DNA from: Callorhinchus milii
Lineage: Eukaryota
DNA: 64,000 nucleotides
Reading direction: 5' to 3'
NCBI RefSeq assembly: GCF_018977255.1
Contig: NW_024704742.1
Span: forward strand, 69,752,001-69,816,000
The notes beneath the pieces were generated by a model. The model had not been told where the DNA came from and searched no databases. It saw nothing but the letters and a program-made list of their open reading frames with translations. Positions within the stretch are counted from its first letter, which is position 1; every line of letters starts with the position of its first letter. This document shows positions 4,270 to 53,300 of the stretch, in pieces. A program made the translations under genes and the position numbers.

Positions 4270-4598
4270 ATAATAATAATAATAATAATCCTTGCATTTG
4301 ATATAGCGCTTTTCACGTCGGGAGGACGTCCCAAAGCGCTTCACAGAACACACTGTAAAGTGAATTGACTGTATATTTGTGGGCGAACGCGGCAGCCAAT
4401 TGCGCACAGCAATGTCCCACAAACAGTCATGGATTGAAAATGACCAATTTATTATTGTTTTTGGTTTTGGAGGGATTATTATTAGGCTCTGTGTGGAGTA
4501 AGGAAACTTGCCCAAGGTTTCGCCCTCTGCCTGGAATTGAACTCACGTCTCTCGCTTGCAAAGCGAGTGCTCTAACCACTGAGCTACAGGACTCCACA
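4270..4598 (-). mobile_element. Young tRNA(Ala)-like-headed SINE with Deu-like core and L2-type tail
   Basis: A-box TAGCTCAGTGG, B-box GAGTTCAATTCC, TTGCAA anticodon-like loop, core GCTGTGCGCAATTGGCTGCCGCGTT, (TAT)n tail; near-identical to copies at 5984, 24174 and 40802. Confidence 0.9.
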
Positions 4599-5195: not shown

Positions 5196-5223
5196 TATAC
5201 ACACACACACACATATATATATA
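5196..5223. repeat. (CA)n(TA)n microsatellite; others: (TA)n 7735-7764, (CA)n 30129-30147, poly-G 42548-42565
   Basis: Direct reading. Confidence 0.9.
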
Positions 5224-5248
5224 GCACTAATTTCAAGCTTCAACTCAC

Positions 5249-5310
5249 CTGAAAAACGTGACAAAGAATTGCACCAGATCCATTAAGTTATTGTGCTGAG
5301 AAAAGGCGAT
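5249..5310 (-). CDS. ATRN: ATRN exon ~25, start of the transmembrane segment: [21 protein letters not shown]
   Basis: ttttgcag acceptor, AG|GTGAGT donor, 62 nt, phase 0 to 2; follows a 19.2 kb intron. Confidence 0.93.
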
Positions 5311-8300
5311 CTGCAAAACAACAACAACAACAAATTACATTTATATAGCGTCCTTCACGCTGCATGTAACACCTTGGGATGCAAGGTTTGTCTCCTATAC
5401 ATAACCGCACGTGGAGACTCAAGTAAAAGTTGGCCAGTTGATCTTGGGCTGAAGTCAAGGTCTCATGTTAGTGTGAAGGGTGGGGGGGAGGGGATTTCCT
5501 GGAGGATGTTATGTGGGAGGCACTTTTCTGGTGTTGAGTGCCATTTACGCTTTCCCTTTCGAGCATTGTTCAATCCTACTGCATAAGGATGTTGTTTCAA
5601 TACAGCGCTTGAGGAAGCACTGCATTATCAGAGGTGCCGCCCTTCCAACAAGACAATAATTTAAAGGAAATGTTTTATATCTTAAAAATACAGTACAGTA
5701 GTAATTGATTATTCTATTATTGCTGATAGTAGACTATGTACTTCTGAATTTTTATCACCATTTTTACACAGCATTTAAGTAATGTATTCACTGTTGAATG
5801 TAAAGAGGTGCTTCTTCCTAATTTATAATTTTGCAAAAAAAGAATAATTTTAAATACAATTTCAAGGTGTGAGCTGATTCTCTTCATCTATAACATTTCT
5901 CCACAGGAAATGGAATGAACACTTTGTGGGAAATAACTTCTCTTTCATTTAAAAGAAAATTATTTCTATACTTAGGAATACATTGGAGTCCTGTAGCTCA
6001 GTGGTTAGAGCACTCGCTTTGCAAGTGAGAGACCTGAGTTCAGTTCCAGGCAGAGGGCGAAACCTTGGGCAAGTTTCCTTACTCCACACAGAGCCTAATA
6101 ATAATCCCTCCAAAAAACAAAACAATAATAAATTGGTCATTTTCAATCTATGACTGTTTGTGGGACATTGCTGTGCGCAATTGGCTGCCGCGTTTGCCCA
6201 CAAATATATAGTCAATTCACTTTACAGTGTGTTCTGTGAAGCGCTTTGGGACGTCCTCCCGACGTGAAAAGCGCTATATCAAATGCAAGGATTATTATTA
6301 TTAATAAACTAAGGTTTCTTCAGCCAGTTCAGGTACATGTTAAAGATCCAGCAATGCTATTTAAAAAGCGAAGAGAGTTTCACTCGGTGTCCTGCCTGAC
6401 AATGCCCCCAAAAAGTGATCATTCACTTTTTGTGGGATACTGTTGCACACAAATTAGCTGCTGTGTTCACCTAAAATACCATGTTTCACAGTAAAATCCT
6501 GTGAAGCTCTTCGAGACCCACAGTGCAGTGGTTAGAGCACTTGCCTCGCAAGCAAGAGGACCCAGGCTCAATTCCTAAGCAGGGAGAAACCTTAGGTAAG
6601 TTTTCTTACTCCACAGGCTTCTGTTTAACTAGCATTAAGTAGGACCCCGGTTGATTAGTCAATTGGCAGATTGCTTTCTGGGGATAATAATCCTTCAAAA
6701 AACAATTTGGTCACTCAATCCACGACTGTTTGCGGGACACTGCTGTGGGCAATTACCCGCCACGTTTCGCCCACAAAATACAGTCAATCCACTTCACAAT
6801 ATATTCTGTGAAGCACTTTGCGATGTCTCAACGATGTGATAAGGCCATATATCAAATATAAGGATTCTTCTTCTTCTTATTGAGTCACCAAAGTTATTGA
6901 ATTACCAAAAGTTTTGAGCGGATATCAAAGGGTTAAGGGGACTGGGGGAGTACAAAGATGGCTTGTGTGCAGAATTCTCCCACTTCCAATTAAAATTCAT
7001 CAGATAAAACAGAACCCAGCAATGCGAGAATTTAATGCTGTGGAAAACGGTTATAATCGTGACATTTAGCTAAATATAATGCTTCGATGGTTTAAAACAA
7101 AGCCATGAATCAAATGACTGAAGGTCTTACCTCCTTGAAACGCACACAAGCCAGTTTTACAGAGGAGTAGATTTAACCGCTTCCCACTGTCGTTCAAAAC
7201 TTAGAGACTTGGTGAAAAATCTCCCCATTACCATTCCTCCAAGGCAACCCAAAGTTTCCAACTGTTATTCAACGATTTACATCAAGTGCAGTAAAGAGAC
7301 CGCAGATATAGAAAAATATGGATATGGTAAAAGATCCCAATGACATTCATTGTAACTTGTATCCCAAACCAGCTCTCTGAGAGTGTTTCAAAAACATTTC
7401 TGAGCCCAATTTCAGAGCAGGACTGATATGTATCTCATCGGCTGGAAATGAGGGATAGCAAATGGCCAGCTGGAAAATATTTTTTTAAAAATTTGTCAGG
7501 CAAACTAACAACAGTGGTAAAAAAGGAAGTGCTGGACAGAGTGGCCAGCAAAAATTGCAACCTTTCCAGGAATTAGGAAAGGCACATCCTTTCTGCAAAC
7601 TTCCCGTTTCCTTTCCCGGAGATTCCGTTCCTCGCAGTGGTAGGTTAACCCTTCTGTTTCAAAGCGTTAACTCTTGCAAAGCGTACCCAACGCTTGCTGG
7701 CAATTTGAAAAGAGGGCACAACTAAGCCCCATTTTATATATGTATGTATATATATATATATATAATTGTGCAGTTCTGTAGCATATTGGTTAGAGCACTC
7801 GCCTCGCAAGCGAGAAGACCTGGGTTCGAATCCCGAGGGGAGGGGAAACCAAATCTCAGCATGTTGCCTGACTCCACTAGCCTAGCAGTAAGTAGGAATG
7901 CACGTGTTAGTCGATTGGCGGATCGCTTTTCCAGAGGTAATAATCCTTTCAAAAAAATTAAATAAAAATATTAGTTGAGCCTGTTTGTGGGACACTGCTG
8001 TGTGCAATTGGCTGCTGTGTTTCGCCCACAAAATATTAAGTCAATTCACTTTACAGTATATTCTGTGAAGTGCTTTGGGATGTGTTGAAGATGTGATAAG
8101 GCTCTATATCAAATGTAAGGATTATTATTATTAATAGTAATAATAATGCTAATATTTGATGCAGCGCCTTGCACTTCGGGAGGACATCTCAAAGCGCTTC
8201 ACAGTAAGGTGTAGTGACTGTGCTCTTCTCCCTCTCCCAGAGAGGGAGAAGAGCACAGACACAGGATTCATAAAACCTTTTCAACATAAAACATTTGAAG

Positions 8301-11300
8301 GATTCGATAAGGTGGATGTTGGTGGGCTGCTTCCACTTGTTGAAAAGAGATGTTTAAGGGGGGACCTAGTTGAAGTGCTTAAAATTGTAAAAGGGTTTGA
8401 TAAGGTTAACATAAATAGGTTGTTTCCACTGGTTGGGGAGTCCGTAACCAGGAGACGCAAGTATAAGATAGTCACTTGTGAATCTAACAGAGAATTTAGG
8501 AGGAGCTACACGCAGAGGCTAGTGAGATTGTGGAACTCACTGCCTGAAGCAGTGGTTGAATCAGAGAGTGTAGATACATTCAAGAGGAAGCTAGGAATGG
8601 AACGAAAGGGTGAAAACTCATGTGGAGTATAAACACCGGCATGGAATTGGTTCGGCTGAGTCGTCTATTTCAATGCTGTACATTCTTTGTAACTTGAGGC
8701 CTTAAATATAAAATAAACGCAAGCAGATTTAATAGGGAGTTAAGGAGGAACTTCTTCACTCAGAGGTGGTGAGAGTGTAGAACTCACTGCCGGGAGCTGT
8801 GGTTGAAATAAAAAGCATCAACGTACTTAAGAAGAATTTGATGCATCCATGAGGAGAGAGGGAATAGTAGGCGTGGATTATTAGCATCGGCACAGACTTC
8901 AGCCCAAATGGCCCATTTCTATGTTGTAATGTCTATGTAACTACCATCTTTTCTTGCACGTTTTACTGAATCTTGTTTGGATGGGGAAAGGAGGTGAATG
9001 AAGAGAAAGAGCAGGGAGGGAGAGAATGCTTGTGTGTCTATTCTCTTAGTGTCCACATTGACGACATTTATAATAATGAGGAAGGATAGTTTTTNACCCG
9101 ATGGTTGTTACCATTTGGAATGCACTGCCTGAAAGGGCGGTGGAAACAGATTTGATAGTAGCTTTCAAAAGGGAATTGGATAGGTGATTGAAAAGGAAAA
9201 ATTTGCCGGACTATGGGGTAAGAATGGGGGAGTGGGACTAGTTGGATAGCTCCTTTAAAGACCTGGCACAGGCACAATGGGCTGAATGGCCTCCTTCTGT
9301 GCTGTACAATTGTATGATTCTAACACAAAAACAGCTTGCACATATATAGCACCCTCCACGCAGGGTAGCATCTCAGAGTGCTTAAGGGTGGCAGAACCCA
9401 ACTGCAATAGCTCCAATTAATGCTGCAGCTAATGTCCACTAATGTACTGAACTTAGTGATAAAGAGGAAAAGAAAACGGCCCCACATTACATGACTTCAT
9501 GAGGTTTCAGCAATAAACGTGGGTAGTCTGGTTTGAATTAAGCTGATGTACGCCTGGGTTTTCACGTCAGCGGGTTAATTTAATCATCTGATCGTGAAAC
9601 TGTTGCAAAGATTGCAACGTGCAGCAGAGAGCAAGAAATAGGAAACCTGTGATTTGCTCCTTTAAAAAAATAATAATCTTTGTATGTTCGAAGCAAGTCT
9701 CAACATGTGCTTCACATTTACTGTAAATTGTAGTGACTATTTACTTTGTAGGAGAACGCAGAAGCCAATTTGCGCACAGCAGCGTCCCATGAAATAGCCA
9801 TGAAGTTAATGACCAATTTTATCTGGGGATTGTTGACCAGGACCCAGGATGGGAAACTCCTTTCACTTTTGAAATAGTGACAAATGTCCATCAGAACAGG
9901 CAAGTGAGACCTCGGTTAACGCCTCATCTGATGCACTCTACCTGCACACCCCCACCCGTCTCCCGGCACTGCCCTGAAGTGTCATTTTAGACTATGTGAG
10001 TTCAAATTACCGACGTGGGGATTGAACCCAAAACCTTCTGACTCAGAGGCAAGAGTCCGACTGACTGAGGTAAAACATTTCTCTCTTCGAACAAAATTGT
10101 ATTCTGCCCTCCATGCCTTGCTGACAGACCAGGCTGGCTAGTCTCCAATCAATAGTGCCTTGGAATACTGTGGACCCATCAGGATTATTGAGATGATAAA
10201 AAATATGGACTGGTTGGTAGATCAATAACATAAGAGAATGAACTTATAATAATAATATAACAATAAACGTTGCATTTGATATAGCATGCCATTGAGACGT
10301 CTCAAAGCGCTTCAAGGAAAATATGGCAAAGTGAGTTGACTGTATATCTTGTGGGCGAAACACTGCAGCCAATTGGACACAGCAGTGTCACACAAACAAT
10401 TGTGGATTGAGAGACCAGTTTTTTTTAAAAAGGAATTATTACCCCGGAAAGCGATCCGCCAATCCACTAACAACCAGGTTCCTATTTACTGCTAGATAAA
10501 CAGATTCGTGTGGATTAAGGAAACTTGGTTAAGGTTTTCAATCCAGGTCCTCTTGCTTGCGATGTGAGTGCTCTGACCAATATGTTGCAGGACTTAAAGT
10601 TGATCACAAAGGAAATTAAAAAGAGGGAGCTCTTTGATGAAGCAGATTATTTTTAAAAAGAATTGGCAGATGTTTGCAATAGGAACATGACAGGGTGTGA
10701 AGAGCATGGAGGTAACTCATGTGGAGAGCAACACTAGGGCAGAATTGATCATCCATTTCTGTATTGTATCCATTTCTGTGGTTTTAAAGTGATGGGAGTT
10801 ATTAATCAGAAAGGAAGTAGATTATCGATAAGAAATGGCAGCCAGCAAGAGTTCAAAACGGGTAGGGCTTGTCTGACCAATCTCATTGACTTTTTTGAGC
10901 AGGTGAGAGCACAAATCAACCATGGGAAGTCATATGATGTAAAAAGGCATTTGACAAAGTACTCCTGAAAGACTCCTTCACAAACTGTAGTCGCTGAGTA
11001 TCAACAACAATAATAATAATCCTTGCATATGAAAAAGTGCCTTATCAGGGGCAAGACATTGATATGGATTCAGTTTGAAAGGAAGCAGAAGGTCTTTGTT
11101 AAGGGAGGTGGGTCAAAATAGGGTCTGTACTGGACACCGCCCGTTCCTCATATATGTTAATGACCTGGATTCACAGAACCAGTAGTTACATTTACGGATG
11201 ACACCAATTTGGGGGGAACTGTGGAATCAGATGAGACAGCAAAGACACTACAAAGAGCGCTTGCATGTCCTTTGTAACTGGCAAATTAAGTTTAATACTG

Positions 11301-14300
11301 ATAATAAACGCAAGGTACTGCATATAGGATCCAAGAATAGGAAATACTATTACTCCATAAATGGGATTGAATTTGCCAAACGGGAACCTGAAAGATCTAT
11401 GATTGTTAGTTGACTCAACGCTCTATATAAAAACAATGTGAGACAGAAATAAATAAGGGAAACAGGACCCTGGTCTGCATTGCCCTGGTCTCCAGTTCCC
11501 CAGATGCCATACAGGCTGTATAATGCTCTGAACAGGCCACACCTAGAGTACTGCTTATTGTTAGGTCACTGTGACATATGGGAGCTGCCCAGGACCAAGA
11601 GGCATTGCAGAGGAGAATAACAAGGATGATCCCCAATGTTAGAGGAATAAGCTATGAGCAAAATTGGACAAGCCAGGGCTCTTCAGAAAAATCTTGAGAA
11701 AATATGTCATTATAGAGAGATGTATAAAATTTTAAATGAGATTGAAAAAGTAAACGCAGAATAGTTTAGGATGCATCAAGACAGAAGAACAGGAGGGCAC
11801 AGGTTTAGAGTTGCAAAGGTACAATTTCAGCACAGATTCCAGGAAGTGTTTCTTTACCCAGAGAGTAATCAACGACTGGAACCGGTTTACCACGAAGAGT
11901 GTTGACACAGGGATTCATTTAAAAAGCAGCACAATACTGTGATGCGATGGGACAGTACTCTGGAGGAATGAGGTTAGATGGTCCTAAAGTACTTCTTCAT
12001 TCATGCTAACCTTGTGACTAAGAGAGCAGTCGCCAAAACAAACACTGGTAAGGATTGGCAGAGTGTGGAGAGCAATTAACATGAAGAAACAAATTTGGGA
12101 CATGAGAGACTAGAATTTCATAATACATAATCTGTCAACTTGCCCACAAAATAGTCAATTCACATTATAGTACATTCTGTGAAACGCTTTGAGACGTCTC
12201 AATGATGTGATAAGGCGCTATATCAAGTGCAAGGATTATTTTATCTCCTTGGTGCTTTCTCCTCTGTTACCTGAGCCCCACTCAAGCTTGAATCCCAAGC
12301 TAATGTAAGGAGCTAGAACAGCACATCCTGTCAAAACTGAGCCACAACTCTCCAACCTGGTCTTTTACCATAGAAAGGCTTATACACGGCTGGTGATTCA
12401 GGAATGCAAGTAAGATATCTTACTACCTTGTAAAGTTCAATCTCTACCGCAAATTGTAGTGAGTTCTTTCTAACTTTTGTTCCCCTCCGTTTCAGAATCA
12501 CAGCCAAAGCCAGCAAGTTAGGTTGTGGCTATAACATGTTAAATCAGTCAGTTCACAGAAGCAGCAAAAGCTTTTCAGTCGGCACTCAAAGTTAAGAGCA
12601 GATTTGGGTTTGAGAGCTGTACACAAAGAATCGTGCCAGAAACACAGTTCCAGCCCAGTTCAACAAGTTTCAAACAAGAGCAGCAAAACCTCAGCAGGAA
12701 AAATATTAACAAACTTGCAGAGCGAAGACAAAGGCATCCATTTACAAAATACTAGCCGGTCAGTAAACCCAGCGTTTGCTAATTTCTCTATTCTTTTCAA
12801 AAATGGTATCGTCAAAGATACATAGCATTACCTCGCTGGTGTTTATGAAAAGACTCCTGATCTGCCACAAAAGAACACTCCCTGGAGTGAAATCTCCAGC
12901 TTTGAGATTACAGGAAACAACCCTTTCCAAATTTTTCCCAAAGGGAACGAAGGAAATGGTTAAGAGTTTGGAGGCTGGGGGAAGGGAACGTAAATACCTT
13001 GGAAGCAACGCCAAAAACAACAAGAGCTAGACCAGATACTGCAAGGATTGCTTGATCTGCTTTAAACGGCAGAGCTGTGAAGTTTAACGTTACCAGTGTC
13101 TCTGCAAAGCGCTGCATGAAAGGCACTGTACGAGTGCCAGCGGTTGGACACATGTTACCTTGGCCACTGGCTTGATCCGGTTGATTTGCCACAACCGTGA
13201 ATCAAACAGTGTCACTGCAATCAATGAGCAGACATGCCAGTAACTGGCCAAGACATTGAGGGAAGCTCCCTTAATAATAACCTTTGCATTTGATATAGCT
13301 CCTTATCACATTGTTGGGACGTCTTAAACCGCTTCACAGAATATATTGTAAAGTGGCTAGACTGCATATTTTGTGGGCAAAACGCAGCAGCCAATTGTTC
13401 ACAGCCGTGTCCCACAAACACTCGTGGATTAAGTGACTTTTTTTTAAGGGTTTATTACCCCGGAAAGGGATCCGCCAATCAACTAATAACTAGGTTCCTA
13501 CTTACTGCTAAATACACAGATGCTTAACCTGTCTGAGGTTCCGTTTTCCCTCCCCCCGAGAATCTAACCCAGGTACTCTCTCTTGCGAGGCAAATGATTT
13601 AACCAATGTGCTTATAGGACTCCACAAGGAAGGGGAAAAAAAGACCTTCACAGAAGTGGACACATTTACAAATAGCGCGGCGGTAAGAAGGGGAAAGACT
13701 CTATCAGATTATAAACACACGAAAAATGGCCAGTGCTGACAATAAATTCCACCTTCCTTATCTTCCTGCAATTTTTTTTGACTGAATTTAGAACTTTTTT
13801 AGTGCGGTTCTCAAGAGTACAAGTCCTTCCAACCCCTGCGCATGCTACAAGCATCGACAATCTTCATAAACTAACAAGAGATTACCGCAGTCAGCAATTG
13901 GTCAGTAGTCAGTCAGTAATTGAATCAAAGACAACCTCTGTACAAGGTTAGAATTGAGTCTCTAACTTAAGAGACTAATGACTTAGAGACTAACTAGAGG
14001 CTGTGCCATTCAAGGAAGGATGGTAGGGGTAAGGGAAGAGACATACACCTCCCCTTTAAGAAAGTTTTTGCCTCACGTGACTTCCCAACAACGGTGCACA
14101 CACAGTCTGGTTCCCTGGCATCACTTGGTTAGTTCTGACCTACATTAATTTTAGAATTGTGAACACTCCCAGCAAGGGCCTCCAAGAGGGTCGATAATGT
14201 GGGGAAGGAGCTCAGTGAATGCAACAGAGTCTTGTCAGTTGAAGAATGAAGATCCCACGGGTAGTCGATCAGTCTTCTTCATTCTTCACGCTCTCGGCAC

Positions 14301-17300
14301 GTGCACGCACTCAGAGCAAGGGGTATCACATAGGCTCCAGTCGAAGGCAAGCTGGGAGAAGCATGCCGAATGGCCCAAACCCCAGCCGTCGGAGTAATAC
14401 ATCCGTCAGATGAGATGTTAAACCAAAGTCCCGCCTATTCCTGTTCAGGCTGACATTAAGATCCCTTGGCAGGATTCAAAAAGTTCCTCCCTGGGGCCCG
14501 ACTAAACAATGCCCGAGATGGAACTGGTCACACACTTCACTGTTTGTACAATATTGTTGTGTGCAAATTCACTGTTGAGTTTATTGGTGCCGCGTTTCAC
14601 CCACAAAATACACAGTATATTCTGTGAAGTACTTTGAGACGTCTCAAAGATGTGCTAAGGCGCTATATCAAATGCAAGAATTATTATTTATTATCTGCAG
14701 AATACAGTCGCTCTACTTAACAATTAAATCTGTGAAGTGCTTCAAGATGTCCTAATGTGAAAGGCATTATCTCAAATGCAAGTATTATTATTATTAGCAT
14801 TAGAATTACCACAGGGCAGGGGTAGGATGGCTGAAAGCCCACCCATTGATTGTTGAGCTGGGGACACAAAGCAAATCTATACTCATGGAGTGTCAGGTCA
14901 ATAAATTTGAAGGACGCCACAGAGCTAGAGTGGGGAGAGATCGTGTAAGGATTTCTAGGTGAAAGTAAAGATCTTGAATTCTATCCTCTGAGGGACAGGG
15001 AGCCAGTGAAGCTGGGTGAAGATGGGGATGTTAGGCTCGCGGAGCCTGATACGGAGGCCTCGAACAGAACGTTGGTGTAGTCAAATCTGGATCTGATTGA
15101 ACACGCGGATGAGGGTCTCAGTCCGAGGGGGGGTAGGTAGGGATGGAAGCAGGGCAATGTTACAGATGTGAGGGAAAGCTGAGCAGATAAGAACACAAAT
15201 GTGGGGGATTGAAAGACAGCTGTGAATCAAATGTGGAATCCTGTAGCATATTGGTTAGAGCACTCGCCTCGCAAACAAGAGGACCCAGGTTTGATTCCCG
15301 GGTAGTGAAACCTTAGGCAAGTTTCCTTACTCCGCATGCCTCTGTTTACCTAGAAGTAAACAGTTGATAGTCGATTGGTGGATCACTTTCTTTGAATAAT
15401 TCCTTCAAATAAATAAATAAATAATAGTTTGGTCACTTGATCTACAACTGTTTGTGGGACACTACTGTTCACAATTGGCTACCGTGTTTCGCTCACACAA
15501 TATACAATCCACTTGAAGTGAAGTGCTTTGAAACATCTCAACAATGTGATAAGGCTCTCTATCAAATGCAAGAATTATTATTATTATATTATGATTAGCT
15601 GTATTCTTTGCAGCTTTGCTTGCAACTAAGGATTCAATATGGAATGTAGATTGACACACAGACAGACACACAGACAGACATTTCATCTTTATCTATACTC
15701 ATCTGGGAGGACTCCTGTGGGAGGACTCATTTTGGCTGTACCGCTCTTTGAGTGGACAACTCATTTTGGCACGCTGTTGCATACCTTTCAACACTGAAGT
15801 GCAGCCGCGCTGTTCTTTGTTCTTCAGTTTCATTTAATGGATCTTCTCTCTTTTGTTTAGCATTTTTACTTATCCTTGAAAAGTTTGATTTCCACTTAGG
15901 CATCTTTATAATCTATACTAATAAACAACAACAATATTAAACTTGTAAAGCGCCTTTCATGTAAGGAGGATGTCCCAAGGCGCTGAACAGTCAGTGTTTC
16001 GGACGAATACAAATATACATGTATAATTTATAATCACTGGGACGTCCTCCCGATGTGAAAGGCACTTTAAAAATGTAATTTTGTTGTGGTTGCCACAACT
16101 TAGCTTCGTCTGTGTTCTTTATTTTGTTCCTGCCGCTGCTTGGCTATGTGCGTGTTCTGTAACGCAGGATGCCACAGCGCCACAGTCAGCCACCAGGTGT
16201 AACTGCAGTGCATGCGTACATACTTAGGTGCTCTGTAACACACGTGCCACTGAAACACATTTTAGGTCAGAACTCATGAACAATAGAAGATCCCCGAAAA
16301 CAATTCCCATGTTACCCCCAGGTGCAAGACCTTTCCAATTAGGTATAAATCATGTCTCTATGTCAATTAGCTATTAAGATCCTTCTTGAAGTGCAGACAG
16401 ACATTGCCATTTTATTAGTGTGTATACATATATAAAAGATAAGTCATGAGGCTCCGCAAGATGGAGAGTACATCCATCCATGCAGTTTGATGCTGTCAGT
16501 GCCTGAGGTGAGAAGGCACTGAGGGGAGAGAAGCAGGAGAGCCTCTGTCGTGTCAACATTCAACTGAAGGACTCGCCCAGGATTTGTACGTTATTACATG
16601 TTAATGTTGTGCCCCATAATGTGCTCAAAAAGTTTGTTCTATCTTTTTAACCTACCATGCATCCAGCAGCAGAATTAGCACACGTTCACTCCTTGCTGGG
16701 TTTATCTATCACCAGCCTTACAGTTCCACAAATCATGTGCACGCGTCATCTCACAGGAAGAGAAAAGAGTATTAATGCAGCCAGCCTGGTGGTCAGGTGA
16801 CATTTTTCTAACTAGAAAACTTTGATTGTGGTGTATTAGCACTGAGTTTTTTTTCCCCTCCTTGAGTTGAGAGAAACTAAGGCATATATCAAGGCACTGT
16901 CTCTCTCTCCTACACACGGGCAAGCTGGACAGTCTGCACTAGCAACAAACTAGTAAGAATCTGCTGGTAAGCCGCCGAGTCAGAAGGTTGTGGGTTCAAT
17001 CAGCTAATAGGGACTCAGGATTCATATGGTTTAAGCTGATGCTCCAATGTAGTGCTAGGGATGTGCTGCATTGTCGGAGGCGCTGTCCTTTGGGTGAAAC
17101 GTTAAACCGATTTCCCAGCTGCCAGTCCAGGTGGACATTAAAGATCCTCCTACACTATTCAAAAAGGGAAGTGAGTTCCTCCCTGTGTCTTGGCCAACAA
17201 TCCTCCAGAAAGAAGTTCGTCAGTCACTTCGTGGTTGTTTGTGGGACAGTTTATTGCTGCCTAAAGTTGCTGTGTCAAAGATATCTCAAAGCACTTCATG

Positions 17301-20300
17301 GAATATACTATAAAGTGGAGCGACTGTGTATTTTATGAGTCTACACAATATGTCAAGGGAGCCCGGGGGAAATTTCGCTGTATCCTCTCGAGCGGAATGT
17401 AAACATGACCCGGTTGCTTTTCAAGCATGGTGACAAGCTGGGCTATTGCTCTTCGCAGACAAATAAAGGTAGCCGTCATATTCAAGAACTGATGAAGTGC
17501 ATCAAAGGTTATGGCAGGCTCCTAGAGCTATTGAGACAATGGGCGGACCAGCCCAAAGGAAGGATTTAAATGAAGAACTATCATTGGTAAACCAGAACGA
17601 TACACCCATCTCGACAGAAGAGGGGCTGCAGGCCAAATGTATCCTGTAGAAGGGAAAGGCTGTAGGGTCGAATAGGGTCTCTGCTGACTCCTGTAAGAAC
17701 CTGGAATTCTTAATGACCTCTTCTCTGTTTTTGAAAGTCATTCAATACAAAAACATTTAGAACGTGGATCACTGCACCCAGTGTCGTCAAAGCAGAATCA
17801 ATTGGGACGCAAAAGTGAGAGATAGAGAGGCATTTGGGAAACAAGGGTATTATATACAATATAGGAACAGGACTAGGCCATTCAGCCCTCGAGCCTGCTC
17901 CACCATTCTATTAGATCATGGCTCATCAGTATCTCAACTCCAATTATTATGAATTAAGTATTGAAGGGTACAGAGCAGGGTAAAGGTAAGGAAATGCTTC
18001 ACAAGATCTGCCATCATCTAAGAGTTGAAGTTAGTTTAATAGAGGTTGCGACTGATAAGATTATTTTTTTTCTATTTCTGTCATCATCAGATTCAACACT
18101 GTTGATGCCACAGGCTCTATACACTTCTCTCTTAATTCAAATATGTGTGGAGGGTGGAGGTGTGTATAAGTGACTATGATATCACAGGCATATGTAGGGG
18201 TGTGTGTGTATATAGCTGTGTAACAATAAAACATACTTATACACACACACATAAACTTAGATGATCTGATTTTAGTGTACTGATACAGTGCAACACCATT
18301 ATAATGTGATAATCTGGCTCCAATGTCTCAGGCCTTGTGTTTTAACTAAGTGTCAGGAGTGCATCTTGTACATCTCTCTCTCACACAAACACACACTTAC
18401 ACCAACACACTCACACACAGAATTCAGGAGGTGACTCAGCAACAGACATCAGTGGCGACCTCAACATTAGCCTTTTTTAGTGGTTAGGAAGCTGGATCAG
18501 CACCGGATGCCAACCACAGGCCTTATAACAGGGCATAAAAGAGTATAACAATATGTCATGGGTATAGCAAGAGTATCATAGGATGTAACAGGGTATGCTC
18601 TGTAGAATTATATACAAAATGTGTCTCGTTTGATGGTCAGTGGCTTTCAGCTGCTGATTTATGAATTTTTGATACCCTACATTGCATTTGCAAAATTAAA
18701 AACAATTTTAAAAAAGAAAAGTACATTACATTATTATGTTTATTGTATACAATCTTTGAATACAATGGGTAGTAGTAAATGCAACACAGAGGTTTACCTC
18801 CACGCTAGCACATTTAAGGAAGGCTGGATAGATACCTCTAGATACCCTGTGGCATACATAGGAATCTAGCCAGTTAGCACGGAACGTATAACAGCAGCAA
18901 CAACAAAGCTAGGTAAGTACATGAGGGAGAAAGGAATAGAAAGTTATGCTGATAGGCTTAGCTGAGGAAAGGCAGGAGGCTCATAAACGTCAGGAGGAGC
19001 ATAAACGCCAGCATAGACGAGTTGTGCCGAATGTGTTGTATATTCTATGTCACAACAAAATTACATTTGTGTAGCGCATTTCACATCAGGATGACGTCCA
19101 ATGGCGCTGGACAATCAGTGTTTGGGACTCGAGCTGGGGGTCAGGATAGCAGAGGCCAGGGGGTGAACGCGGAGGGTAATCAAAGGCACAGTCGAAGAGG
19201 AGCATCTTGAGACAGGTCTTGAAGGAAGCAAGGGAGGGGGCAAGGCGGAGTGACTGCGGGATGGAGTTCCAGAGGGTGGGGGCAGAGTGGCTGAAGGCCC
19301 GCTCGCCAATGGTGGGGCGGGCGAGGTGGAGGATGTGAAGCAGGCCGGAGCCCGCTGAATGTAGGGAACGGGCAGATTGGTACGGGGTTAGGAGGTCGCA
19401 GAGGTAGGGGGAGCAAGACCATGGAGGGCTTTGAAGGTGAGGACCAGGATCTTGAACTGTATCCTCCATGTAATGGGAAGCCAGAGGAGTCAGGCGAGGA
19501 TGGGGGTGATAGGGTCATGTAGCCTGATGCAGAAGACACGGGCTGCAGAGTTCTGGATGAACTGCAGCCTACGGAGAAGGACCTGGGGAGGCCAACAAGC
19601 AAGGAGTTTGCATAGTCAAGCCTGGATGTTATGAATGCTTGTATGAGGGTTTCGGTGGCCTGCGGTGTGAGACAGTGGCGGAGCCGGGCGATGTTGTGGA
19701 GGTGGGGTAATGTCAGAGCGGGTCATGGCATGGATGTGGTGTAGAAAGGATAGTTGAGGGTCAAACAAGATGCCAAGGTTCCGGACTGGTTTAGTAAGTT
19801 GCAGTGCACAACCTTGGACAGGAGTGGAGGACAACTGAAGAATTATAGAATCCTAGAATTATACAGCACAGAAGGAGGCCAATCGGCCCATCGTGTCTGT
19901 GTCTGCTCTTTGAAAAGAGTTATCCAATTCAATCCCACTCCCCCACTCTCTCCTCATAGCCATGCAAAACTTGTTCTCCCCAAATAATTATCTACTTCTC
20001 TCTTAAAAGCTGTTATCGAATCGGCTTCCACCACCCTTTCAGGCAATGTATTCCAGATCTGAACAAATTGGTGTGTAAAAAAATTTCTCCTCACCGCCCC
20101 TCTGTTTCGTTTAACAACTATTCTAAATCGGTGCCCTTGGGTTACCGACCCACCCGCCAGTGGAAATAGTTTCTCCTTGTTCACCCTATCGAATCCCCTC
20201 ATAATTTTGAAAACTTCTATTCAGTCTCCTCTTAACCTTCTCTGTTCCAAGGAGAATAATCCCAGCTTCTCTCGCCTCTCCTGATAACTGAAGTCCTTCA

Positions 20301-23300
20301 TTCCTGATACCATCCTGGAAAATCTCCTTTGAACCCTCTCCAATGCCTCGACATCCTTCCTAAAGTGTGGGGCCCAGAACTGAACACTTACTCTCGCTGA
20401 GGCCCAACCAGTGTTTTATAAAGGTTTGTTATAACTTCCTGACTTTTGTATTCTCTGCCCCTATTTATAAAGCCTAGTGTCCCGTATGCTTTTTTAACAG
20501 CTTTATCTCCCTGTCCTGCCACCTTCAAAGATTTACTGATATGAACCCCCAGGTCTCTCTGTTTCTTCGCCCCCTTTAAGATTGTACCATCCTCTTATAT
20601 TGCCTCTCCTCATTCTTCCTCCCAAAATACCATCACTTCACATTTCTCCACATTAAACTTCATCTGCCACGTGTTTGCCCATCTTACCAGTCTGTCTATG
20701 TCCATTTGCAGTCTGCTACTATCCTCCTCACTGTTTACTACTTCTCCTAGCTTAGTATCATCTGCAAACTTGGAAATTGTACTCCCTATACCCAAGTCTA
20801 GGTCATTTATATAGATCGAAAACAGCAGTGGTCCCAATACCGACCCCTGGGAGTCACATTTGCACACTTCCCTCCAGTCAGAAAAACAACTGTTCACAAA
20901 TACTCTCTGCTTTCTGTCTCCCAGCCAGTTCTGTATCTATGCTGCCACTGTCCCTTTAATACCGTGGGCTTCTATTTTGCTTACAAGTCTCTTATGTGGC
21001 ACTTTATCAAACGCCTTTTGAAAATCCATATAAACTACACCAAGTGCACTACCTTCATCCACCCTCTCCGTTACTTATTCACACAGAGGATACAGTTCAA
21101 GATCCAGGATCTCAGCTTCAAAGCCCTCCACAGTCTTGCTCCCCCCTATCTCTGCAACCTCCTAACCCCCCACCACCGTGCCCGCTTCCTCTGCTCAGCG
21201 GGCTCCGGCCTGCTTCATATCCTTCACCTCGCTCGCACCACTATTGACGGGCAGGCCTTCTGCCACTCTGCCCCCACCCTCTGTAACTCCATCCTGCAGT
21301 CCCTCCGCCTCACCCCCTCCCTTGCCTACTTCAAGACCCATCTCAGGACCCTCCTCTTCGACCACCCTGTTTCTCCCCCTGCCTTCTAACCTCCCCAATC
21401 CCGACCCCCAGCTCGGGTCTGAAACTCTGTTTGTCCAGCGTCTTGGGACGTCCTCCCAACGTGAAAAGCGCTATACAAATGTAATTTTGTTGTTTTTGAT
21501 CAAAAATCTCTTATCAAGTTTGTGAGACAGGATTTGCCTTTAACAAACCTGTGTTGGCTGTCCTTTATTAACCCATATTTTTCTAGGTGAAAATTTATTT
21601 TGTCCCGTTTTATAGTCTCTAGAAGTTTCTCTACTACTGACATTAGGCTGACTGGCCTGTAGTTCCTGGGTTTATCCTTCAGCCACTTTTTGTACAGGGG
21701 AGTAACATTTGCAACCCTCCAGTCCTCTGGCACCACCCCGGTGTCCAAGGAGGATTGTAATTGTGGCAGAGACTCTGTTATTTCCACCCTTACTTCCCTC
21801 AGTAACCTAGGATGCATCCTGTCCGGACAGGGTGACTTATCTACCTTGAACACCAACAACCTTTTTAGTACCTCCTCTGTTTATTCTTATCTTATCCAAT
21901 TTCTCTACCCTCTCCTCCAATTGGCTGCATCCTCTTCTTTTGTGAAGACAGATGCAAAGTACTCATTCAGTACGTCAGCCATGCCCTCTGCCTCCACAAG
22001 AAGATTTCCTCTTTGGTCCCACCCTACCTTTGACTTAACATTTATTCTTTATATGCTTATAAAATACCTTAGGGTTCCCTTTTGTTACCTGCTAATCTTT
22101 TCTCATACAATATCTTTGCCCCTCCTATTTCCTTTTTCAGTTCTCCTCTGTACTTTCTATATTCTATTTGATTATCTTCTGTATTTTGGACCTGACATTT
22201 ATCATAAACCTCCTTTTTCTGTTTTATTTTATTCCCAATTTCCTTTTTCATCCAGGGAGGTTTGGATGCTCTACTTTTTCCTTTTGTGGGAATGTATTTG
22301 TTCTGTCCCCGAACTATTTTCTTCTTGAAGGCTTCCCATCGCTTGTTAGCTGTTTTACCTGCCAATCTTTCTTTCCAGTGCACCATGGCTCGGTCCCTTT
22401 TTAACTCACTGAAATTTGCCCACTTCCAGTTGAGTATCTTCACCTTTGATTGTTCCTTGTCCCTTTCCATAAGTACTCTAAATCTAATGAGTTGTGATCA
22501 CTGTTGTCCAGATGCTCTCCTACTGGAACCTGTTCCACTTGCCCCACTTCATTCCCCAGAACTAGATCCAGCACTGCTTCCTTCCTGATTGGGTTGAAAA
22601 CATACTGATCCAGAAAGTTATCCTGCACACTTTCAGGAATCCTTCCCCTTCCTTGCCCTTTACACTATTATTTTGCCAGTCTATGTTAGGATAATTGAAG
22701 TCCTCCATTATTACTACTCTATTGGTTTTGCATCTTTCTGAAATCTGCTTGCAGATTTGCTCGTTTATCACCTTCCCACTATTTGGTGGTCTGAAGTATA
22801 CACCTAACAGAGTAACAGTTCCTTTTCTGCTCCTTAACTCTAACCAAATAGATTCTGTTTGGGGCCCTCTACCACATCGTCCCTTTCCAGGGCCGTAACT
22901 GTGTCTTTAATCAATATTGCCACCACCCCTTCCTTTTTTTCCTTCCCGATCCCTCCTGAATACATTAGTCAGGATTATTCAGCTCCCATTCCTGCCCTTG
23001 TTTGAGCCAGGTCTCCGTTATTGCCACTGCATCATAACCCCCTTTGGCAACTTGAGTTTGCAGCTCACCAATCTTATTGGTCATACTCAGTGCATTTACG
23101 CACATGCACTCCAAGACCGACTTAGTCTGTTTTTCATTTCTCCCCCGTCTAATCCCTCCTTTTTCTGGATTACTCCTTATTACATTGCTATTTATCACTC
23201 CCAGCCCTCTATGTAACTTGTTTGTCCTCTCTAATACTACATCCCGATTCCCTTCCACCCTCGAAATTAGTTTAAACCCTTCCCCACAACACTAGATAAC

Positions 23301-26300
23301 CTCCCTGCGAGGACATTAGTCCCAGCCTTGTCAGTGTAACCCATCCCCCTTGTACAGGTCCCAAGCGCCCCAGAACTGAAGCCCTCCTTTCTGCACCATT
23401 TCTCCAGCCATGCATTCATGTGTTTGATCCTGCTGTTTTGATACTCACTTGCACTAGGCACTGGGAGTAATCCAGAGATCACCCCCTTTGAGGTCCTACT
23501 CTTTAGCTTTTTCCCAAGCTTCTGATACTCTCCCTGTAGGATCTCAGCCCTTTTTTCCTTAAGTCATGGATCCCAACATGGACCACGACTTCTGGATGTT
23601 CCCCTTCCCCCTGTAGAACGCCTTGCACCCATTCCATGATATCTTCAACCCTGGCACCAGGAAGGCAACATTCCATGCGAGAGTCATATCTTTAATAATA
23701 ATAATAATCCTTTGGTTGCAGAAACACCTGTCTACTCCTTTCACCATTGTGTCCCGAATAACAATTGCTCTGTCAAGAAAGTTAGCTTTCATCCAAGACT
23801 TGAGGTCTGACAAACATTCCTTCAGGACAGCAGTGGTCTTGGGAGTCATGGGTGGAGCAGAGAGATAGAGTTGGGTGTCATCCGCATACATGAAGTTGAC
23901 CCCATGTCTGCGGATGATGTCACCAAGAGGGCGCATATAGATATTGAAGAGGAGGGGACCAAGGACAGATCACCGAGGAACGCCGCAAGAGAGTGTGCGG
24001 GGGCTAGAGGAGAAACCATTTGTGCAGATGAAGTGGAGATGTTGTGAGAGGTAAGATCTGAACCATTCAAGGACAGAAGCATGAAGGTTGAGGTGAGAGG
24101 AGAGGCAGTGGAGGCGGATAGAGTGGTCTCCCCACTCTCGTGAAAGCTCTCCCCAAAGACGCAAACTGCTAACATAATAATAATAATAATAATAATAATC
24201 CTTGCATTTGATATAGCGCTTTTCACGTCGGGAGGACGTCCCAAAGCGCTTCACAGAATATACTGTAAAGTGAATTGACTGTATATTTGTGGGCGAACGC
24301 GGCTGCCAATTGCGCACAGCAATGTCCCACAAACAGTCGTAGATTGAAAATGACCAATTTATTATTGTTTGGGGTTTTGGAGGGATTATTATTAGGCGTG
24401 TGGAGTAAGGAAACTTGCCCAAGGTTTCGCCCTGCCTGGAACATAATTCCAAAGGTATTAGAAAGCGGACTAGATGGACCTTGGTATTTTATCGTCTAGC
24501 AATTCCTACGTTCCTATGGACGAGGAAACTGGTAACTAACCTGTATCTTGATGGGCCAGGTGAAGTTGCTGACATACACGAAGAATGTGATGTTCGGGTT
24601 GTTGCGGAAGTCAAACTTCTCGTTGGAGAAGCTGTCCTTATATTCTTTGATGTTGTTCTTCGAAATAATCGGAATCTCTTCTCCCGCCTGTGTGCCGGCT
24701 GTTTTCAGCACAGGAAACAATAACCAAAAATCCAATTAACTCACTGACAAAGCCCTTGTGAAGCTCAAAAGCCAGACCAGTTCTCAGCAACAACCAAAAT
24801 AGCTGTTTATGGGACGTTGCTGTTTGTGCGCAAATTGTCTGCCATGTTCGCCCACAACAAACACAGTCACTTCATTTTCAGTGTATCCTGGGAAGCGCTT
24901 TGAGACATCCACCCAACTTGAAAGGCGCTGTGTCAAATGAAAGGATTATAGTAATATAGGAATACATAGGAGCATAAGAACAGGAGGAGGCCGTTCAACA
25001 ACAACAAGATTCCATTTATAGAGCGCCTTTCACGTTGGGAGGACGTCCCAAGGCGCTGTACAGTTGGGTCAGGACCCGAGCAGGGGGGAAATGGTCAGGG
25101 TGAGGGGAGGGAAAGGAGGGAGCGAGGAGGGGGTAGAAAGTCGAGAGGAGAGCTGAAGGCACGGTCAAAGAGAAAGGTCTTGAGACAGGCCTTGAAGGAG
25201 GAAAGGGAGGAGGCGGCGAAGGCACTGGGGGATGGAGTTCCAGAGCCTGGGGGCTGAGAGGCTGAAGGCCCGGCCACCGATGGTAGGGTGGTCGGGGCGG
25301 GGGACATGGAGCAGACCGGAGCCAGAGGAACGGAGGGTATGGGCAGTTAGGTAGGGGGATAGTAGGTCGGAGAGGTAGGAGGGAGCGAGGCCGTGAATGG
25401 CCTTGTAGATGAGGATGAGTATCTTGAATTTGATCCTCTGGGGGATGGGGAGCCAGTGGAGGCGAGCGAGGGTGGGAGTGATGTGGTCCTGGTGCGGTAC
25501 AGTACACGAGCTGCAGAATTCTGAATGACCTGCAGCTTGTGGAGGGAGGTGCCGGGAAGGCCGGCGAGGAGAGAGTTCCCATAGTCCAGCCTTGAAGTGA
25601 TAAAGGCATGGACCAGAGTTTCAGCAGCGTGAGGGGTGAGGTAGTGCCGTAGTCTGGCGATGTTCTGGAGGTGATGGAAGGCAGTGCCAATTGTGGCGCG
25701 GATATGAGGGAGAAAGGACAGCTCAGGGTCGAACAGAACACTGAGATTCCTGACCGGCTTTGAGAGGTGGAGAGTGCAGCCTTGGATGCTGATGGTGTCA
25801 GCGCCTGAGGTGCGGAGGCGCTGACGTGAGCCAATCAGGAGGGCCTCGGTTTTGTGCACGTTGAGCTGAAGAAAGTTGTCTCTCGTCCAGGACTCGATGT
25901 CGGACAGGCAGACTGTCAGGACATCGGGGGTCGTGGAGTTGAGGGTAGAGGAGGAAAGGTAGAGTTGGGTGTCATCCGCATACATGTGGAAGTTAACCCC
26001 ATGTCTGCGGATAATGTCACCAAGGGGGAGCATATAGAGGGTGAAGAGGAGGGGACAGAGGACAGAGCCCTGAGGGACACCGCACGAGACAGTGCGGGGG
26101 CTGGAGGAAAAGCCGTTCGTGGAAACAAAATGAAGACGGTGGGAGAGGAACGACCTAAACCACTCAAGGATTTTGAGGAGGTCCGGCCAGATTTGTCGGT
26201 GGACCGTTAGGCCAGGTTTGACGCAGGTGCGTTCAGCGGCCTGCACCTGGCTCTTCAGTGAGCGGAGGTGGGTGGTGAACCAGGGGGAGGAGCGAGAGTA

Positions 26301-38300: not shown

Positions 38301-41300
38301 CATTTCGGGAGGGCTTCCCAAGGCGCTGAACAGTCAGTAATTTGGATCGACGCTAGGAGTTGGGATCAGGAGAGGTAGAGGGCAGGGAGCGTAGGGGTAG
38401 GTGGGTGGCCAAAGAGGAAGATCTTGAGATGTGTCATGAAGGAGGCAAGCAGGGGGGACACGAAGGGTCTGTGGGATGGAGTTCCAAAGGGTGGGAACAG
38501 AGAGGCTGAAAGTTGGATCACTGATGGTGGGGTGGGCAGGGAGACATGGAACAGGCTGGATCCTGCTGAGCGCCGACCGGCTAAAATGAGCATAGCCACT
38601 TTGCAAATATCGCAAACTGCATCCCAGTGTAAATTTATAACTGTACCCAACAATACCAGTGGAAAAAATCGATGCTGGTAACATTACAAGCTTTATTGAA
38701 AGCTACTTTTAAGATGCGTTATCTGCTTGAACAAACGTATTATTGTACATTTGACTAATTAGGTATCACCAGCGCTGATGCCCTTAACACCCAGAAACAC
38801 AATTTCAATATTTCAGTATTTAATCTTTCTAACATTTGGCATTTTCCATTAGAAAATGCTATAATTAGCCACTTGCAATTACAATAAATTCCAGCGATCA
38901 GACTGATAAAATAGCGCGACTGTCTAATTAAGACCAGTCACTAACAGAGTTTCCTAAAATGTGACAAGCTGATTCAGGTTTAAAGGATGCGGGTAGACAC
39001 TGGGAGGGCAGAAACAAGCACTCCTTTGTGTGTCTACCATACAATAAGGATATTTTTAACCCAAACTCAGGAACTAGGAAACAATTAAATGGAGCATTTT
39101 TAAGAGTGTCTTGATTACTCTAAAAGTACAGTCATTAACTGAAGGACGGCACCTCCAACAATGCAGTGCACCCCAGAACTGTACTGTCAGGCTAGGCTGT
39201 GTTCACACATGCTGAGGTGGGGCTAGATTGCAGTCCAAAATTACTATAGATCGGCTTTCATGTCAGCAGACATCCGAAAGCACTCAACAGCACAGCATGG
39301 GCAGTCGAGCAGAGGGTTGGGAGGGGAAAGATGGCTAAAAGCTGAGTTATAGAGGTAGAGACAGAACTTGAATGGGGGGAGAGAAGTTCCAGAGACTGGG
39401 ACGGGGAGGGCAGAAAGGCTGAAAGCCCATCAACGCTCGAAAATGCTGAGCCAAGCTGATATCCGAGACACCTCTTGCTCTCGCTGCTGATGCAGTTTTC
39501 GATATTTGCAAAGGGGTTGGGAAGTGCTAATTTTAGCCGGTCGGACAGAGGACTGCTCAGTGCAAATGCACAAATTGGGGGGCGGGCGGGGTGGGGGTGG
39601 TCAAACGGCGGCAATGAGGGAGGTGGCTTCTCACTCTTAGGCCTTTCTTTCTATCATTTCAGTGGTCTTTGGCATTGTGACACTCCGCATGGAGCGGAGC
39701 ACTACGAAGTGCTATAATGGACTACTCACGTGTAGTTAATGGACTACTCACGTGGACAGCTGCTCATGGTGTACCACTCCATGCACTGGCCGAACGGGAA
39801 GGAGGCCACGTAGGCCTTGGAATCCACACACTGCTTCATGTTGCTGCACCACATGCACTCGGTGCTGCTGCTGGTACACTCCCCACACGTCATTCTCTGG
39901 GCACACGGAGTGCGGCACTGCTTGGCACTGTGATTTGCTGCAAATTAGAGAGATTCCGCTTTAATCAACAACTCTGCTTCTCATTTTCTTTCCCGCTGCG
40001 GGCGGCCCCGTGCTTCACTAGGCATTGACTTTACCCATGAAGACATCATAGTGAATCCCATTCCTCCTTTTTTCTTGGAACTTTATCTAATTATTGTCTA
40101 AAAGAATTAGGAACTCCCATCAATAGTTTGTGGCAGACAATTTCCTTATTCTTAGCTTAATTCTTTTTGTGACTGTCTTAAATTTCTTATTGCTATAATA
40201 ATATAGAATAATAAGCCTTATATTTGATATAGTGCCTGATCGCGACATTGAAACAACTCAAAGCACTTCACAGAAGATATTGTAAAGTGGATTGACTGTT
40301 TATATTATGGGTGAACCAGGGCAGCTAATTGTGCACAACAATTTCCCACAAACAGTTATGGGACCAATTTTTTTAATGACTCACTGACTATTCCCAGGGG
40401 ATGGGTGGGATGGATACCTCAATCCATATTATTGCTCAAAGCTCAGCTACCGTGGCTTAAAATTCAAGAGGCTGTTGCAGACTGATTAACTTCTAACTTT
40501 TTCCTCTTTCGCTTGAGGCTAAAAGGCAGCGGTTACAGATCTGGATTTATTCTAATAATCCTTACATTTGATACAGTGCTTTTCATGTCAGGAAGATGTC
40601 TCAAAGCGCTTCACAGGATTTACTGCAAAAAGGGGTTACTGTGCATTTTTGGTGGGTGAAGACTCGTGTCATGTATGAACATCAACACACTAGTTGGGCC
40701 GAATAGCCTGTTCCCATACTGTACAGTCTATTTAAATCTATGTAAATGTGGCTGCCAATTTTCACAACATCCCACACGGACATTCAAAGTGTAAGAGAGG
40801 GTAATAATAATAATAATAATAATCCTTGCATTTGATATAGCGCTTTTCACGTCGGGAGGACGTCCCAAAGCGCTTCACAGAACACACTGTAAAGTGAATT
40901 GACTGTATATTTGTGGGCAAACGCGGCAGCCAATTGCGCACAGCAATGTCCCACAAACAGTCGTAGGTTGAAAATGACCAATTTATTATTGTTTTTGGTT
41001 TTGGAGGGATTATTATTAGGTGTGTGGAGTAAGGAAACTTGCCCAAGGTTTCGCCCTCTGCCTGGAATTGAACTCAGGTCTCTCGCTTGCAAAGCGAGTG
41101 CTCTAACCACTGAGCTACAGGACTCCACAGGGTAAGTAAGGAAATGCAATGTGTCCTAGCATGCATAGAGACAGACAGCCTGTACAGCACGGAAACAGGC
41201 CACTCAACCCAACCATCTGTACCAACGTTTATGTACAATACAAAATTACATTTGTATATCACGAGTCTCCACCCACACCTCCTGTACCCTTTTATTCCCC

Positions 41301-50300: not shown

Positions 50301-53300
50301 TATGGAACAGGCTCCTTAGGGAGACTGTGGAAGCAGAAAGTGCTGTTACTTTCAAGAACAAATTAGATAGAATTATTTTAGGAAATAATATCTCAGAATA
50401 CACTATATAGTTTGGGACATGACTGCCAGGATGGTGGAAGGCGAACTGGATGGACCTTGGTTTGCTTTAGTAATTGTGATGTTCTTATGTTCAGCAACCA
50501 ATAAGCATAGTTCTGTTTCAACTGCCTTCTCTCCAGTTCCTGCTCTCCATCCTTCACCCCCCTCCCCAGTAGAAAAACAAATGTCATATTCTTCACCTGT
50601 TACAAATCTAGACAGTTTCAGAAGCAGAATCGCTCTTTTATGCTACTTTACTGACCTTGAGCAATAGTCAAGGTGATTCTGGCTGCACAGTATATCTGGG
50701 GGTGGGTCAATGGGGAGGCCTCAGGCTGTACAAACTGCATTGGAGTCGAGTGCTTTGGACATTCCCTGGAGGACATGGTGTCAGGTGCAATGAGCTTTGA
50801 ATCCCGTTGTCGAAGGGGATGGGGGGGGGGAGAGGCGAGAAGGAGCAGCAGTACCAGAGCTTCCGCAGTTACCAATTACATTCGCCTCACTTCTCTCAAG
50901 GACTGTTCAAAGTTTCCACTTTAGCAGCAACAGAATCGCAAAATGCAATGCGTAGTGAACATAAGAACATAAGAATTTGCTAGACAAAAGAAGACCAGGA
51001 TCCATCCAGTTTGCCTTCCACCATTCTGGCAGTCGCATGCACATGTCATGTCCCAAACAATATACTGTATCCCAAAGATATTATTTCCTAAAAGAAATCT
51101 ATCTAAATCTTAGTGACTGACCACAAACTTCTTCACTCAGGGTACGACACGGTACCAGATCCCATACTGTGTCAGGCTTACAGTCTCCTTTTCTCTGACC
51201 CTCCACTCACAACCAAACAACTAACTAAAAACAACCTGTGCTTGGCTTAAACGCAGTCACAAAATTCCCAATATTCTCCTATACTGTCTTAATTTGTGGG
51301 CGAAACGTGGCAGCCGATTTCTCAAAGCAATGTTCCACAAACAGAGTTGAGTGACTAAGTGATTTACTTATCTATTTGTTTACTTATTGATTTATTTTTT
51401 AAAGGGATTATTACCCCCAGAAAGCAATTTGACAATCGACTAACAACCGGGTTCCTACTGACTAGGTAAACAGTGTAGAGTAAGGAAACTTGCCTAAGGT
51501 TTCTCTCCATCTGGGAATCGAACCTAGGTCCTCTCACATGCAGGGCGAGTGCTCTAAGAGAAGGCGCTTATGCAAAGAATTATCATAATGAACCCATCCC
51601 CTATTGTTCTGTTGCCTTGCTGCATATGTATGTCCTGTCCCGGATATGCTCTCTCGGTCCCGCTATTGCATATTTCAAAAGCAAGTTCCCCTTTTGAACT
51701 GTTCCCACTCTTCAATGTCTGAAGGTTATTAGAATACTTGAATCTTTAATAACAGTATTTCTGATCGATTGCTTTTCAACATTCTCGCTCTTTAAATAGA
51801 CCATTTAGCCGGGTTGTGGCACTTTGCTCTCTTACCAAGCACTGCAATTATATGCAATGTCCTCTCATCGATTCGGTGCTAATGTGCTGTGAGGGAGAAA
51901 TCGGACTCTAAATCAAACCTCAAGCAAGAAAGAGCTGAGCCTGTTAATTTCTTCTCAGTGAAAGCAACAGGAGACTTTGAAATTAGCTGTCACTCATCAG
52001 GTTAGTTCTGCCCACGTGTGGACTCTGATTGAGGATCTTATTCCCCTTGTCCAATCGCTGCAACTAAGAACTAATCACAACAACAATATAGCGCTCCTCA
52101 TGCCCACCTTGTCTTCGACCATGCCTTCGATCTCCCTGCTTCCCCACCTGCCCTCCACCCTCCCACACCCCGACCCTCAGCTCGGGTCCATAACTCTGTC
52201 TGTCCAGCACCTTGGGACGTCGTCCTGACGTGAAAGGCGCTACACAAATGTAATTTTGTTGTTGTTGTTGGTTGTTGTTGTTGGTAGCATCCCAGAGCAC
52301 TCAACATTCCAGAGATGGAGCATGACTCCAAGCCTGGGGGAGATGATCGTAAGCACGGCCAAAGAGGAAATCACAGAAAGTTACAGCAAAAGAGAAGACA
52401 ATTTGACCCAATAAGCCTACATCTGCTCTCTGAAAGTGTTGTCCATTCAATCCCACTCCCCTCCCTTTCATAGATACTGCTCAAACCCAAGATCTGGTCA
52501 TTCTCTCTCTCAGTGGGCAGTGGTCTGCTTCATGTCCCCCACCCTACCTGATACACTATCGGGGTTTGGGCTTTCAGCTTGTCTACCCTTATTCTCTGGA
52601 ACTCGATTCTGGAGAGCCTCCAACTCCCAATTCCCCTTTTAGAAGATAAATAATAATCCTTGCATTTGATATAGCACTTCATCACGCCGTTGTGACGTCT
52701 CAAAGCACTTCACAAAAGTGAATCGATTGACTATGTTGTGGGAGAAAATTTAATTAAATTAAAATTTTATGGAATCAGTCCTGATCACCAATTGTGTCAA
52801 GAAAATCTCACGAGTAAAAGTAATGTGATACAAATTTATAATTATACAGCACCTTTCACATCAGGCGGCTGGCCCAAAGTGCTTAACAATCTGGCTTTGG
52901 CACTTGAGTTGGGAGTGGGAGCTGAGAAAGACGACCAAAGGCCCAGTCCAAGAGGAAGTGGATCTCGAAGGAGGTGAACGAGGGAGCGAGTTGGAGGCAC
53001 TCCAGAATCGAGTTCCAGAGAGTAGCAGACAAGCTGAAAGCCGAACTGCCGATAGTGTGGCAGGTAGGGTGGGGGACATGAAGCAGACCACTGCCCACTG
53101 AGAGAGGGAGTGACCAGGTCTTGGATTTGAGGAGGTTGCAGAGCAACCAGCAGGCACCTCTCTGTGATTCCCCCCTCCTAGCCATGGTCCTAATGTGCTA
53201 CAACAGGAATATTTGAGCTGTAAATGTTTAGGGGAGGCAGCACCACAGAGGAAGGATAACCTGGGTGACCTTTTCACTAGGAAAACAGGGACAACCTAAA

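Follow-up and report, generated by a model that had tools for sequence, protein, structure and literature searches.

Secreted attractin has been reported in human and rat (PMC5599910, PMC2323389), and the first of these sources describes most species as making membrane attractin only. The closest described counterpart of the arrangement analyzed here is the human soluble form (isoform 2); according to a review (PMC3554611), an L1-derived terminal exon, exon 25, lies between human ATRN exons 24 and 26. Poly(A) sites donated by transposable elements (TEs) are an established class, and mechanisms of this type are already familiar. MIR and L2 elements are described as donating poly(A) sites to host transcripts (PMC2553571), the L2-derived IL18R1-Short is presented as the product of a TE-donated site (PMC13232192), and dog Can-SINEs are said to donate poly(A) sites as well, their intronic AATAAA motifs being reported as purged (bioRxiv 2020.11.30.405357). 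Cryptic last exons are described as recurring in orthologous introns, as in EphA4, and as favoring the longest intron of a gene (bioRxiv 10.64898/2026.01.30.702498), and intronic polyadenylation has been linked both to weak donors and to long introns, with U1 protecting cryptic sites (PMC10227441). For Callorhinchus milii, Luchetti et al. (2017, PMC5499810) described the CmiSINEs (SINE2-1_CM / SINE2B-1_CM), which possess a tRNA-Ala head and an L2-type tail and number 302,861 copies, about 130,000 of them inside genes; the older SacSINE1-CM (Deu) has only the 3' ~160 bp in common with CmiSINE. The main text of that paper mentions neither "AATAAA" nor "polyadenyl".

We analyzed a stretch of C. 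milii DNA of 64,000 nucleotides (the window) for which a preliminary description had proposed that a SINE in an ATRN intron might end the transcript early and yield a soluble attractin. The proposal resembles human secreted attractin in gene, upstream exon, intron, and use of a retroposon poly(A) signal, and the product would similarly lack the membrane and cytoplasmic parts. In contrast to the human form, whose spliced last exon has been demonstrated and draws stop and signal alike from L1, the chimaera proposal is drawn from sequence only and involves read-through of a donor, an older antisense repeat as the source of the stop, and a SINE as the source of the signal. Two different repeats thus stand in place of the single retroposon that supplies acceptor, stop, and poly(A) signal in human, and the two soluble forms would be convergent in outcome only, their routes differing. 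The MIR/L2, Can-SINE, and IL18R1-Short examples are similar in having a sense-strand AATAAA within a retroposon consensus, able to end host transcripts, but these published cases rest on transcript data whereas the focal SINE is known from its nucleotide sequence. The reported purging of intronic AATAAA from dog Can-SINEs also contrasts with the ATRN window, in which sense copies were not depleted. The EphA4 exons parallel the human and shark ATRN models in that, in different lineages, a receptor is terminated at one and the same point by intronic sequences of unrelated origin; those exons are described as spliced and RNA-supported, whereas the SINE site would be a predicted composite exon. 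With the CmiSINEs the focal element shares its host species (by protein match), a putatively L2-like tail, high copy number, and sister copies with a tRNA-Ala head, although the focal copy itself lacks the head. The reading we favor, with a probability of about 0.76, is that the young SINE leaves with the ATRN intron and that no soluble attractin arises from the site beyond trace cleavage.

The final ectodomain exon, its donor, and the read-through stop

The host gene is ATRN: the exon at 24698-24541 (minus strand) matched C. milii attractin P0004 at every residue (100% identity), and 19 exons of C. milii XP_042199688 (P0121) were placed exactly and in colinear order on the minus strand, spanning 61887 to 5249. 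Mapping of P0004 and P0121 identified 24541..24698 as the final ectodomain exon (…AGTQAGEE…NFTWPIKIQ), the counterpart of the exon that precedes the human soluble/membrane split, and the following exon, which starts the membrane segment (IAFSQ…FFVTFF), was located by protein mapping at 5249..5310 on the same strand. The intervening intron (5310-24541) extends over 19.2 kb and is the longest of the 18 introns in the window; the remaining 17 range from 0.6 to 6.1 kb, the second longest reaching a third of its length. Its initial 99 nt are non-SINE, and the assembly contains a single N at 9095. The preliminary description had stated that human secreted attractin ends after this same exon by means of an L1 exon, and both the review (PMC3554611) and human isoform 2 (P0129), which ends WPIKIQ-VQTEQ, agree with that account. 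A bonobo model (P0058) reads through the donor into a tail that begins VRRGF rather than VQTEQ, which indicates that the human soluble end is spliced.

The 5' splice site of the chimaera exon is CAG/GTTAGT (24535..24543, minus strand, exon end at 24541). It matched the consensus at 8/9 positions, a score of eight being reached by 3 of the 19 ATRN donors, and its U1 duplex energy ranked 10th of 19; by these crude measures (consensus match count and duplex energy) the donor is of average strength, not weak, and so differs from the weak 5' splice sites with which composite terminal exons are associated. Read-through of CAG/GTTAGT to TAG had been proposed, and the coordinates held: on the minus strand, translation of 24514..24540 gave eight extra codons (VSYQFPRP) before TAG at 24516-24514. 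This in-frame stop is ordinary, since 10 of the 19 donors show read-through of eight codons or fewer and the probability of a stop within nine codons was 0.34 for random starts. The SINE was rejected as the source of the TAG, which lies 73 nt upstream of it and inside an older repeat fragment at 24461..24518 (plus strand, antisense to ATRN) that was recognized by similarity to other loci in the window (76-78% identity of 24518-24461 to 43573-43515 and 50960-51018). The short-repeat end of this fragment contributes the TAG; read on the plus strand, the fragment looks like the 3' terminus, with its short repeats, of a putative CR1-type LINE.

Among short database proteins, mostly unnamed ORF calls, 55 have V-initial tails at the orthologous donor; these are unconserved, with a median length of 20 aa and 11/55 at 8 aa or shorter. 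VSYQF occurred in 0 of the 189 proteins compared, and when the read-through peptide was searched against proteins, none of the 38 matches carried the VSYQFPRP tail. An Rfam search over 23500-25200 returned two weak matches, which were rejected as far under the gathering scores.

The SINE copy and its poly(A)-like signal

BLAST comparison with sister copies defined a young, 5'-truncated tRNA-Ala SINE with an (ATT)n tail at 24178..24441 (minus strand, sense to ATRN), flanked on both sides by TTATGTT (24446-24440 and 24177-24171). The element retains only the last bases of the tRNA head; three full-length copies in the window match it at 94-96% BLAST identity and differ from it by 7-9 substitutions per 245 nt (2.9-3.7%). 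The three sisters are ~325 nt long, 96-98% identical to each other, and placed by alignment at 40802..41126 (minus strand, sense, in an ectodomain intron, with identical AATAAA and GU element), at 4270..4595 (minus strand, sense, with the same signal 795 nt past donor 5249), and at 5985..6306 (plus strand, antisense, inside the 19.2-kb intron). Read-through of donor 5249 stops after one codon (…FFVTFFR*), and the first AATAAA beyond it is the one in the sister at 4270-4595. All three sisters (3/3) have tRNA-Ala heads, and the three tRNA-Ala(TGC) predictions made by ARAGORN (4522-4592, 5988-6058, and 41053-41123) are unlikely to be true tRNA genes, as all correspond to these young SINE heads. 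The final ~55 nt of the SINE are 82-90% identical to LINE-like ends within the window (e.g., 25063-25010 and 21437-21484). The SINE is likely a member of the CmiSINE family, an assignment made by match to the published description rather than by consensus alignment, and the substitution rate in PMC5499810 gives a rough age of ~15-35 Myr. With ~130,000 genic CmiSINE copies, placements like that of the focal SINE are expected to be common.

The preliminary description had placed AATAAA of a young sense SINE about 150 nt past the stop and a GU-rich stretch downstream of it, and both are present. The hexamer lies in the SINE body at 24363-24358 (24358..24363, minus strand), 151 nt after the TAG and 177 nt after the donor, and the GU-rich CTGTTTGTGGG (24326..24336, minus strand) begins at 24336, 22 nt past the hexamer end (27 nt from its start). 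CA/TA/GA dinucleotides occur at 24346-24337, and hexamer, CA, and GU element are spaced as in a normal poly(A) site. The order of elements is that of a composite terminal exon, with an in-frame stop followed by a poly(A) hexamer and a downstream GU-rich element; no TGTA was found within the 100 nt upstream of AATAAA 24363. All young SINE copies (4/4) carry both AATAAA and GU stretch, two of the others being sense-oriented in ATRN, and the hexamer is thus a feature of the SINE subfamily. AATAAA was found anywhere in the body of 12 of the 25 longer SINE-related matches spanning the site (7 sense, 5 antisense). In the 64-kb window, AATAAA with a TGTTTGTG-like element downstream is present at six sense sites and in seven antisense matches (5 loci), and the sense sites at 40987 and 37752 fall within ectodomain introns. 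The 19.2-kb intron holds 14 sense AATAAA sites, namely the focal one and 13 more, six of which cluster at 21569-22233. The 61 SINE-related matches in the window include 36 of at least 120 nt, with 21 sense versus 15 antisense (p = 0.41); no sense depletion was seen in this small, one-gene test, and young copies may still await purging.

The closeness of AATAAA to donor 24541 is the sole unusual point, and it is somewhat unusual. The hexamer that follows the read-through stop is the closest to its donor among all 19 ATRN donors, one of which has AATAAA within 177 nt and three within 500 nt. The chance of such proximity at donor 24541 was 0.11 (20,000 random starts) and fell to ~0.02 when a GU element was also required (hand arithmetic from 6 such sense sites/64 kb), whereas the chance of finding it at one or more of the 19 donors was ~0.9.

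Annotated attractin proteins and competing readings

In the C. milii cluster, 8/8 ATRN proteins end with the 162-aa membrane tail, annotation being prone to miss minor isoforms. Three shark proteins differ from this pattern: among the 15 listed of 17 cluster members (7 species), P0143, P0149, and P0150 (2/7 species) end directly after the exon corresponding to 24541..24698, with QERR* in Carcharodon and tails of 21 and 34 aa (NSTLSC… and MFLHAN…) in Heptranchias. These short models are predictions. Their tails are mutually unrelated and cannot begin at GT, so they appear to be spliced, and the first Heptranchias tail gave only short matches to the window among the matches listed. Other models, from Heterodontus, camel, capuchin, bat, elephant, rhino, coelacanth, platypus, and eel, end after the exon at 5249..5310. 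The shark models suggest that the region is permissive for new transcript ends, and the Carcharodon and Heptranchias proteins may be a better lead to convergent soluble attractin than the focal SINE.

Donor 24541, of average strength and 177 nt upstream, would hold the AATAAA site under U1 protection (telescripting), and its splicing to the exon at 5310 would produce membrane attractin. Indirect evidence speaks against a soluble isoform from the site: the ordinary nature of the stop, a signal shared across the subfamily and tolerated at other places in the gene, average U1 pairing, and the membrane form of all eight annotated proteins (8/8). The best reading is an ordinary one, in which the focal element is one of ~300,000 SINE copies.

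We consider it unlikely that the donor is skipped in some tissue and that cleavage at the SINE signal forms a composite last exon, giving a secreted ectodomain that ends VSYQFPRP. The stop does precede a well-spaced AATAAA-CA-GU array, which is the nearest to any of the 19 donors (chance ~0.11, or ~0.02 with GU), and the truncation point coincides exactly with the end of human isoform 2, but no C. milii protein has such an end (0/8). TE-derived intronic poly(A) sites that yield truncated receptors are documented, no other intron in the window is as long as the 19.2-kb one (cryptic last exons preferring a gene's longest intron), and the intron seems permissive, as 3 of the 15 listed shark proteins end there. 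Against these points, the signal recurs across the family and is tolerated at other places in ATRN, the donor is of average strength, the upstream region lacks TGTA, and the SINE is a young one (roughly 15-35 Myr). Were the isoform real, retroposon-made soluble receptors would have arisen convergently across jawed vertebrates, and a secreted attractin in cartilaginous fish would suggest repeated selection for a soluble form. No report of soluble chimaera attractin appeared among the literature matches listed in a non-exhaustive search.

It is similarly doubtful that C. milii makes a membrane-less ATRN from a spliced last exon located elsewhere in the 19.2-kb intron or after the next exon, with the SINE being incidental. 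The human gene uses a spliced L1 exon from which the bonobo read-through (VRRGF) differs, the Carcharodon and Heptranchias models end at the exon with tails that do not start at GT, and 13 further sense AATAAA sites are available in the intron; in addition, the account in PMC10227441 includes a skipped last exon in human ATRN that is probably unannotated. None of the eight C. milii models shows such an exon, however, and the shark tails share no relationship with one another and belong to predicted models, the first Heptranchias tail having only short window matches among those listed. A still broader proposal, improbable in our judgment, is that the post-ectodomain ATRN intron is a 450-million-year-old hot spot for soluble attractin, used independently by human (through L1), white shark and sevengill shark (through unrelated spliced tails), and chimaera (through two stacked retroposons, the stop coming from one and the poly(A) site from the young SINE), with the young CmiSINE subfamily acting as a portable poly(A) site genome-wide.

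Sequencing-run contigs and repeats flanking the exon

Sequencing-run material was given no weight in the preference for excision of the SINE with its intron; it consists of assembled contigs, which are incapable of showing RNA ends and whose depth is unable to rank parts of the gene. Of 23 sampled words, 12-13 were present in each of eight presumed-RNA runs (exon-only expectation 0.52) and 22-23 in each of four unlabelled runs, while two runs contained next to none; the word counts in these 14 runs were taken as evidence neither way. For 4 of the 14 runs compared with 5200-25199, repeat cross-mapping was dominant, with at least 117,996 pieces, at least 3,321 joints, and at least 5,769 loose ends, and neither the 24541-5310 splice joint nor pieces crossing the donor were among the matches listed. 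A contig of run X1 apparently covers 24541-24700, the exon alone. This implies that sequence continues in two ways at either end of the exon, which unspliced RNA or DNA would explain as well as read-through does. Within the exon X1 differs at 24595 and 24622 (C>T and G>A, plus strand), and these differences are probably alleles; because the run contains 13/23 words despite the differing exon letters, it may contain sequence that crosses the donor. Contigs of X1 and X8 reach unique intron stretches at ~10.7-18.7 kb, past the SINE, and DNA carry-over is possible. Run X4 had no cover at two exon positions listed, probably as a result of filtering.

The exon is also flanked by LINE remnants at ~25000-26170 and 23775-24073 (minus strand, sense to ATRN), which share 78% identity over 303 nt. 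We presume these to be L2-like, their reverse-transcriptase-like character having been judged by eye. An older SINE-related copy at 24799-24952 (plus strand) lies antisense ~100 nt 5' of the acceptor of exon 24541..24698. The exon is thus bracketed by inverted related repeats (~80% identical), so pairing within the pre-mRNA is possible.
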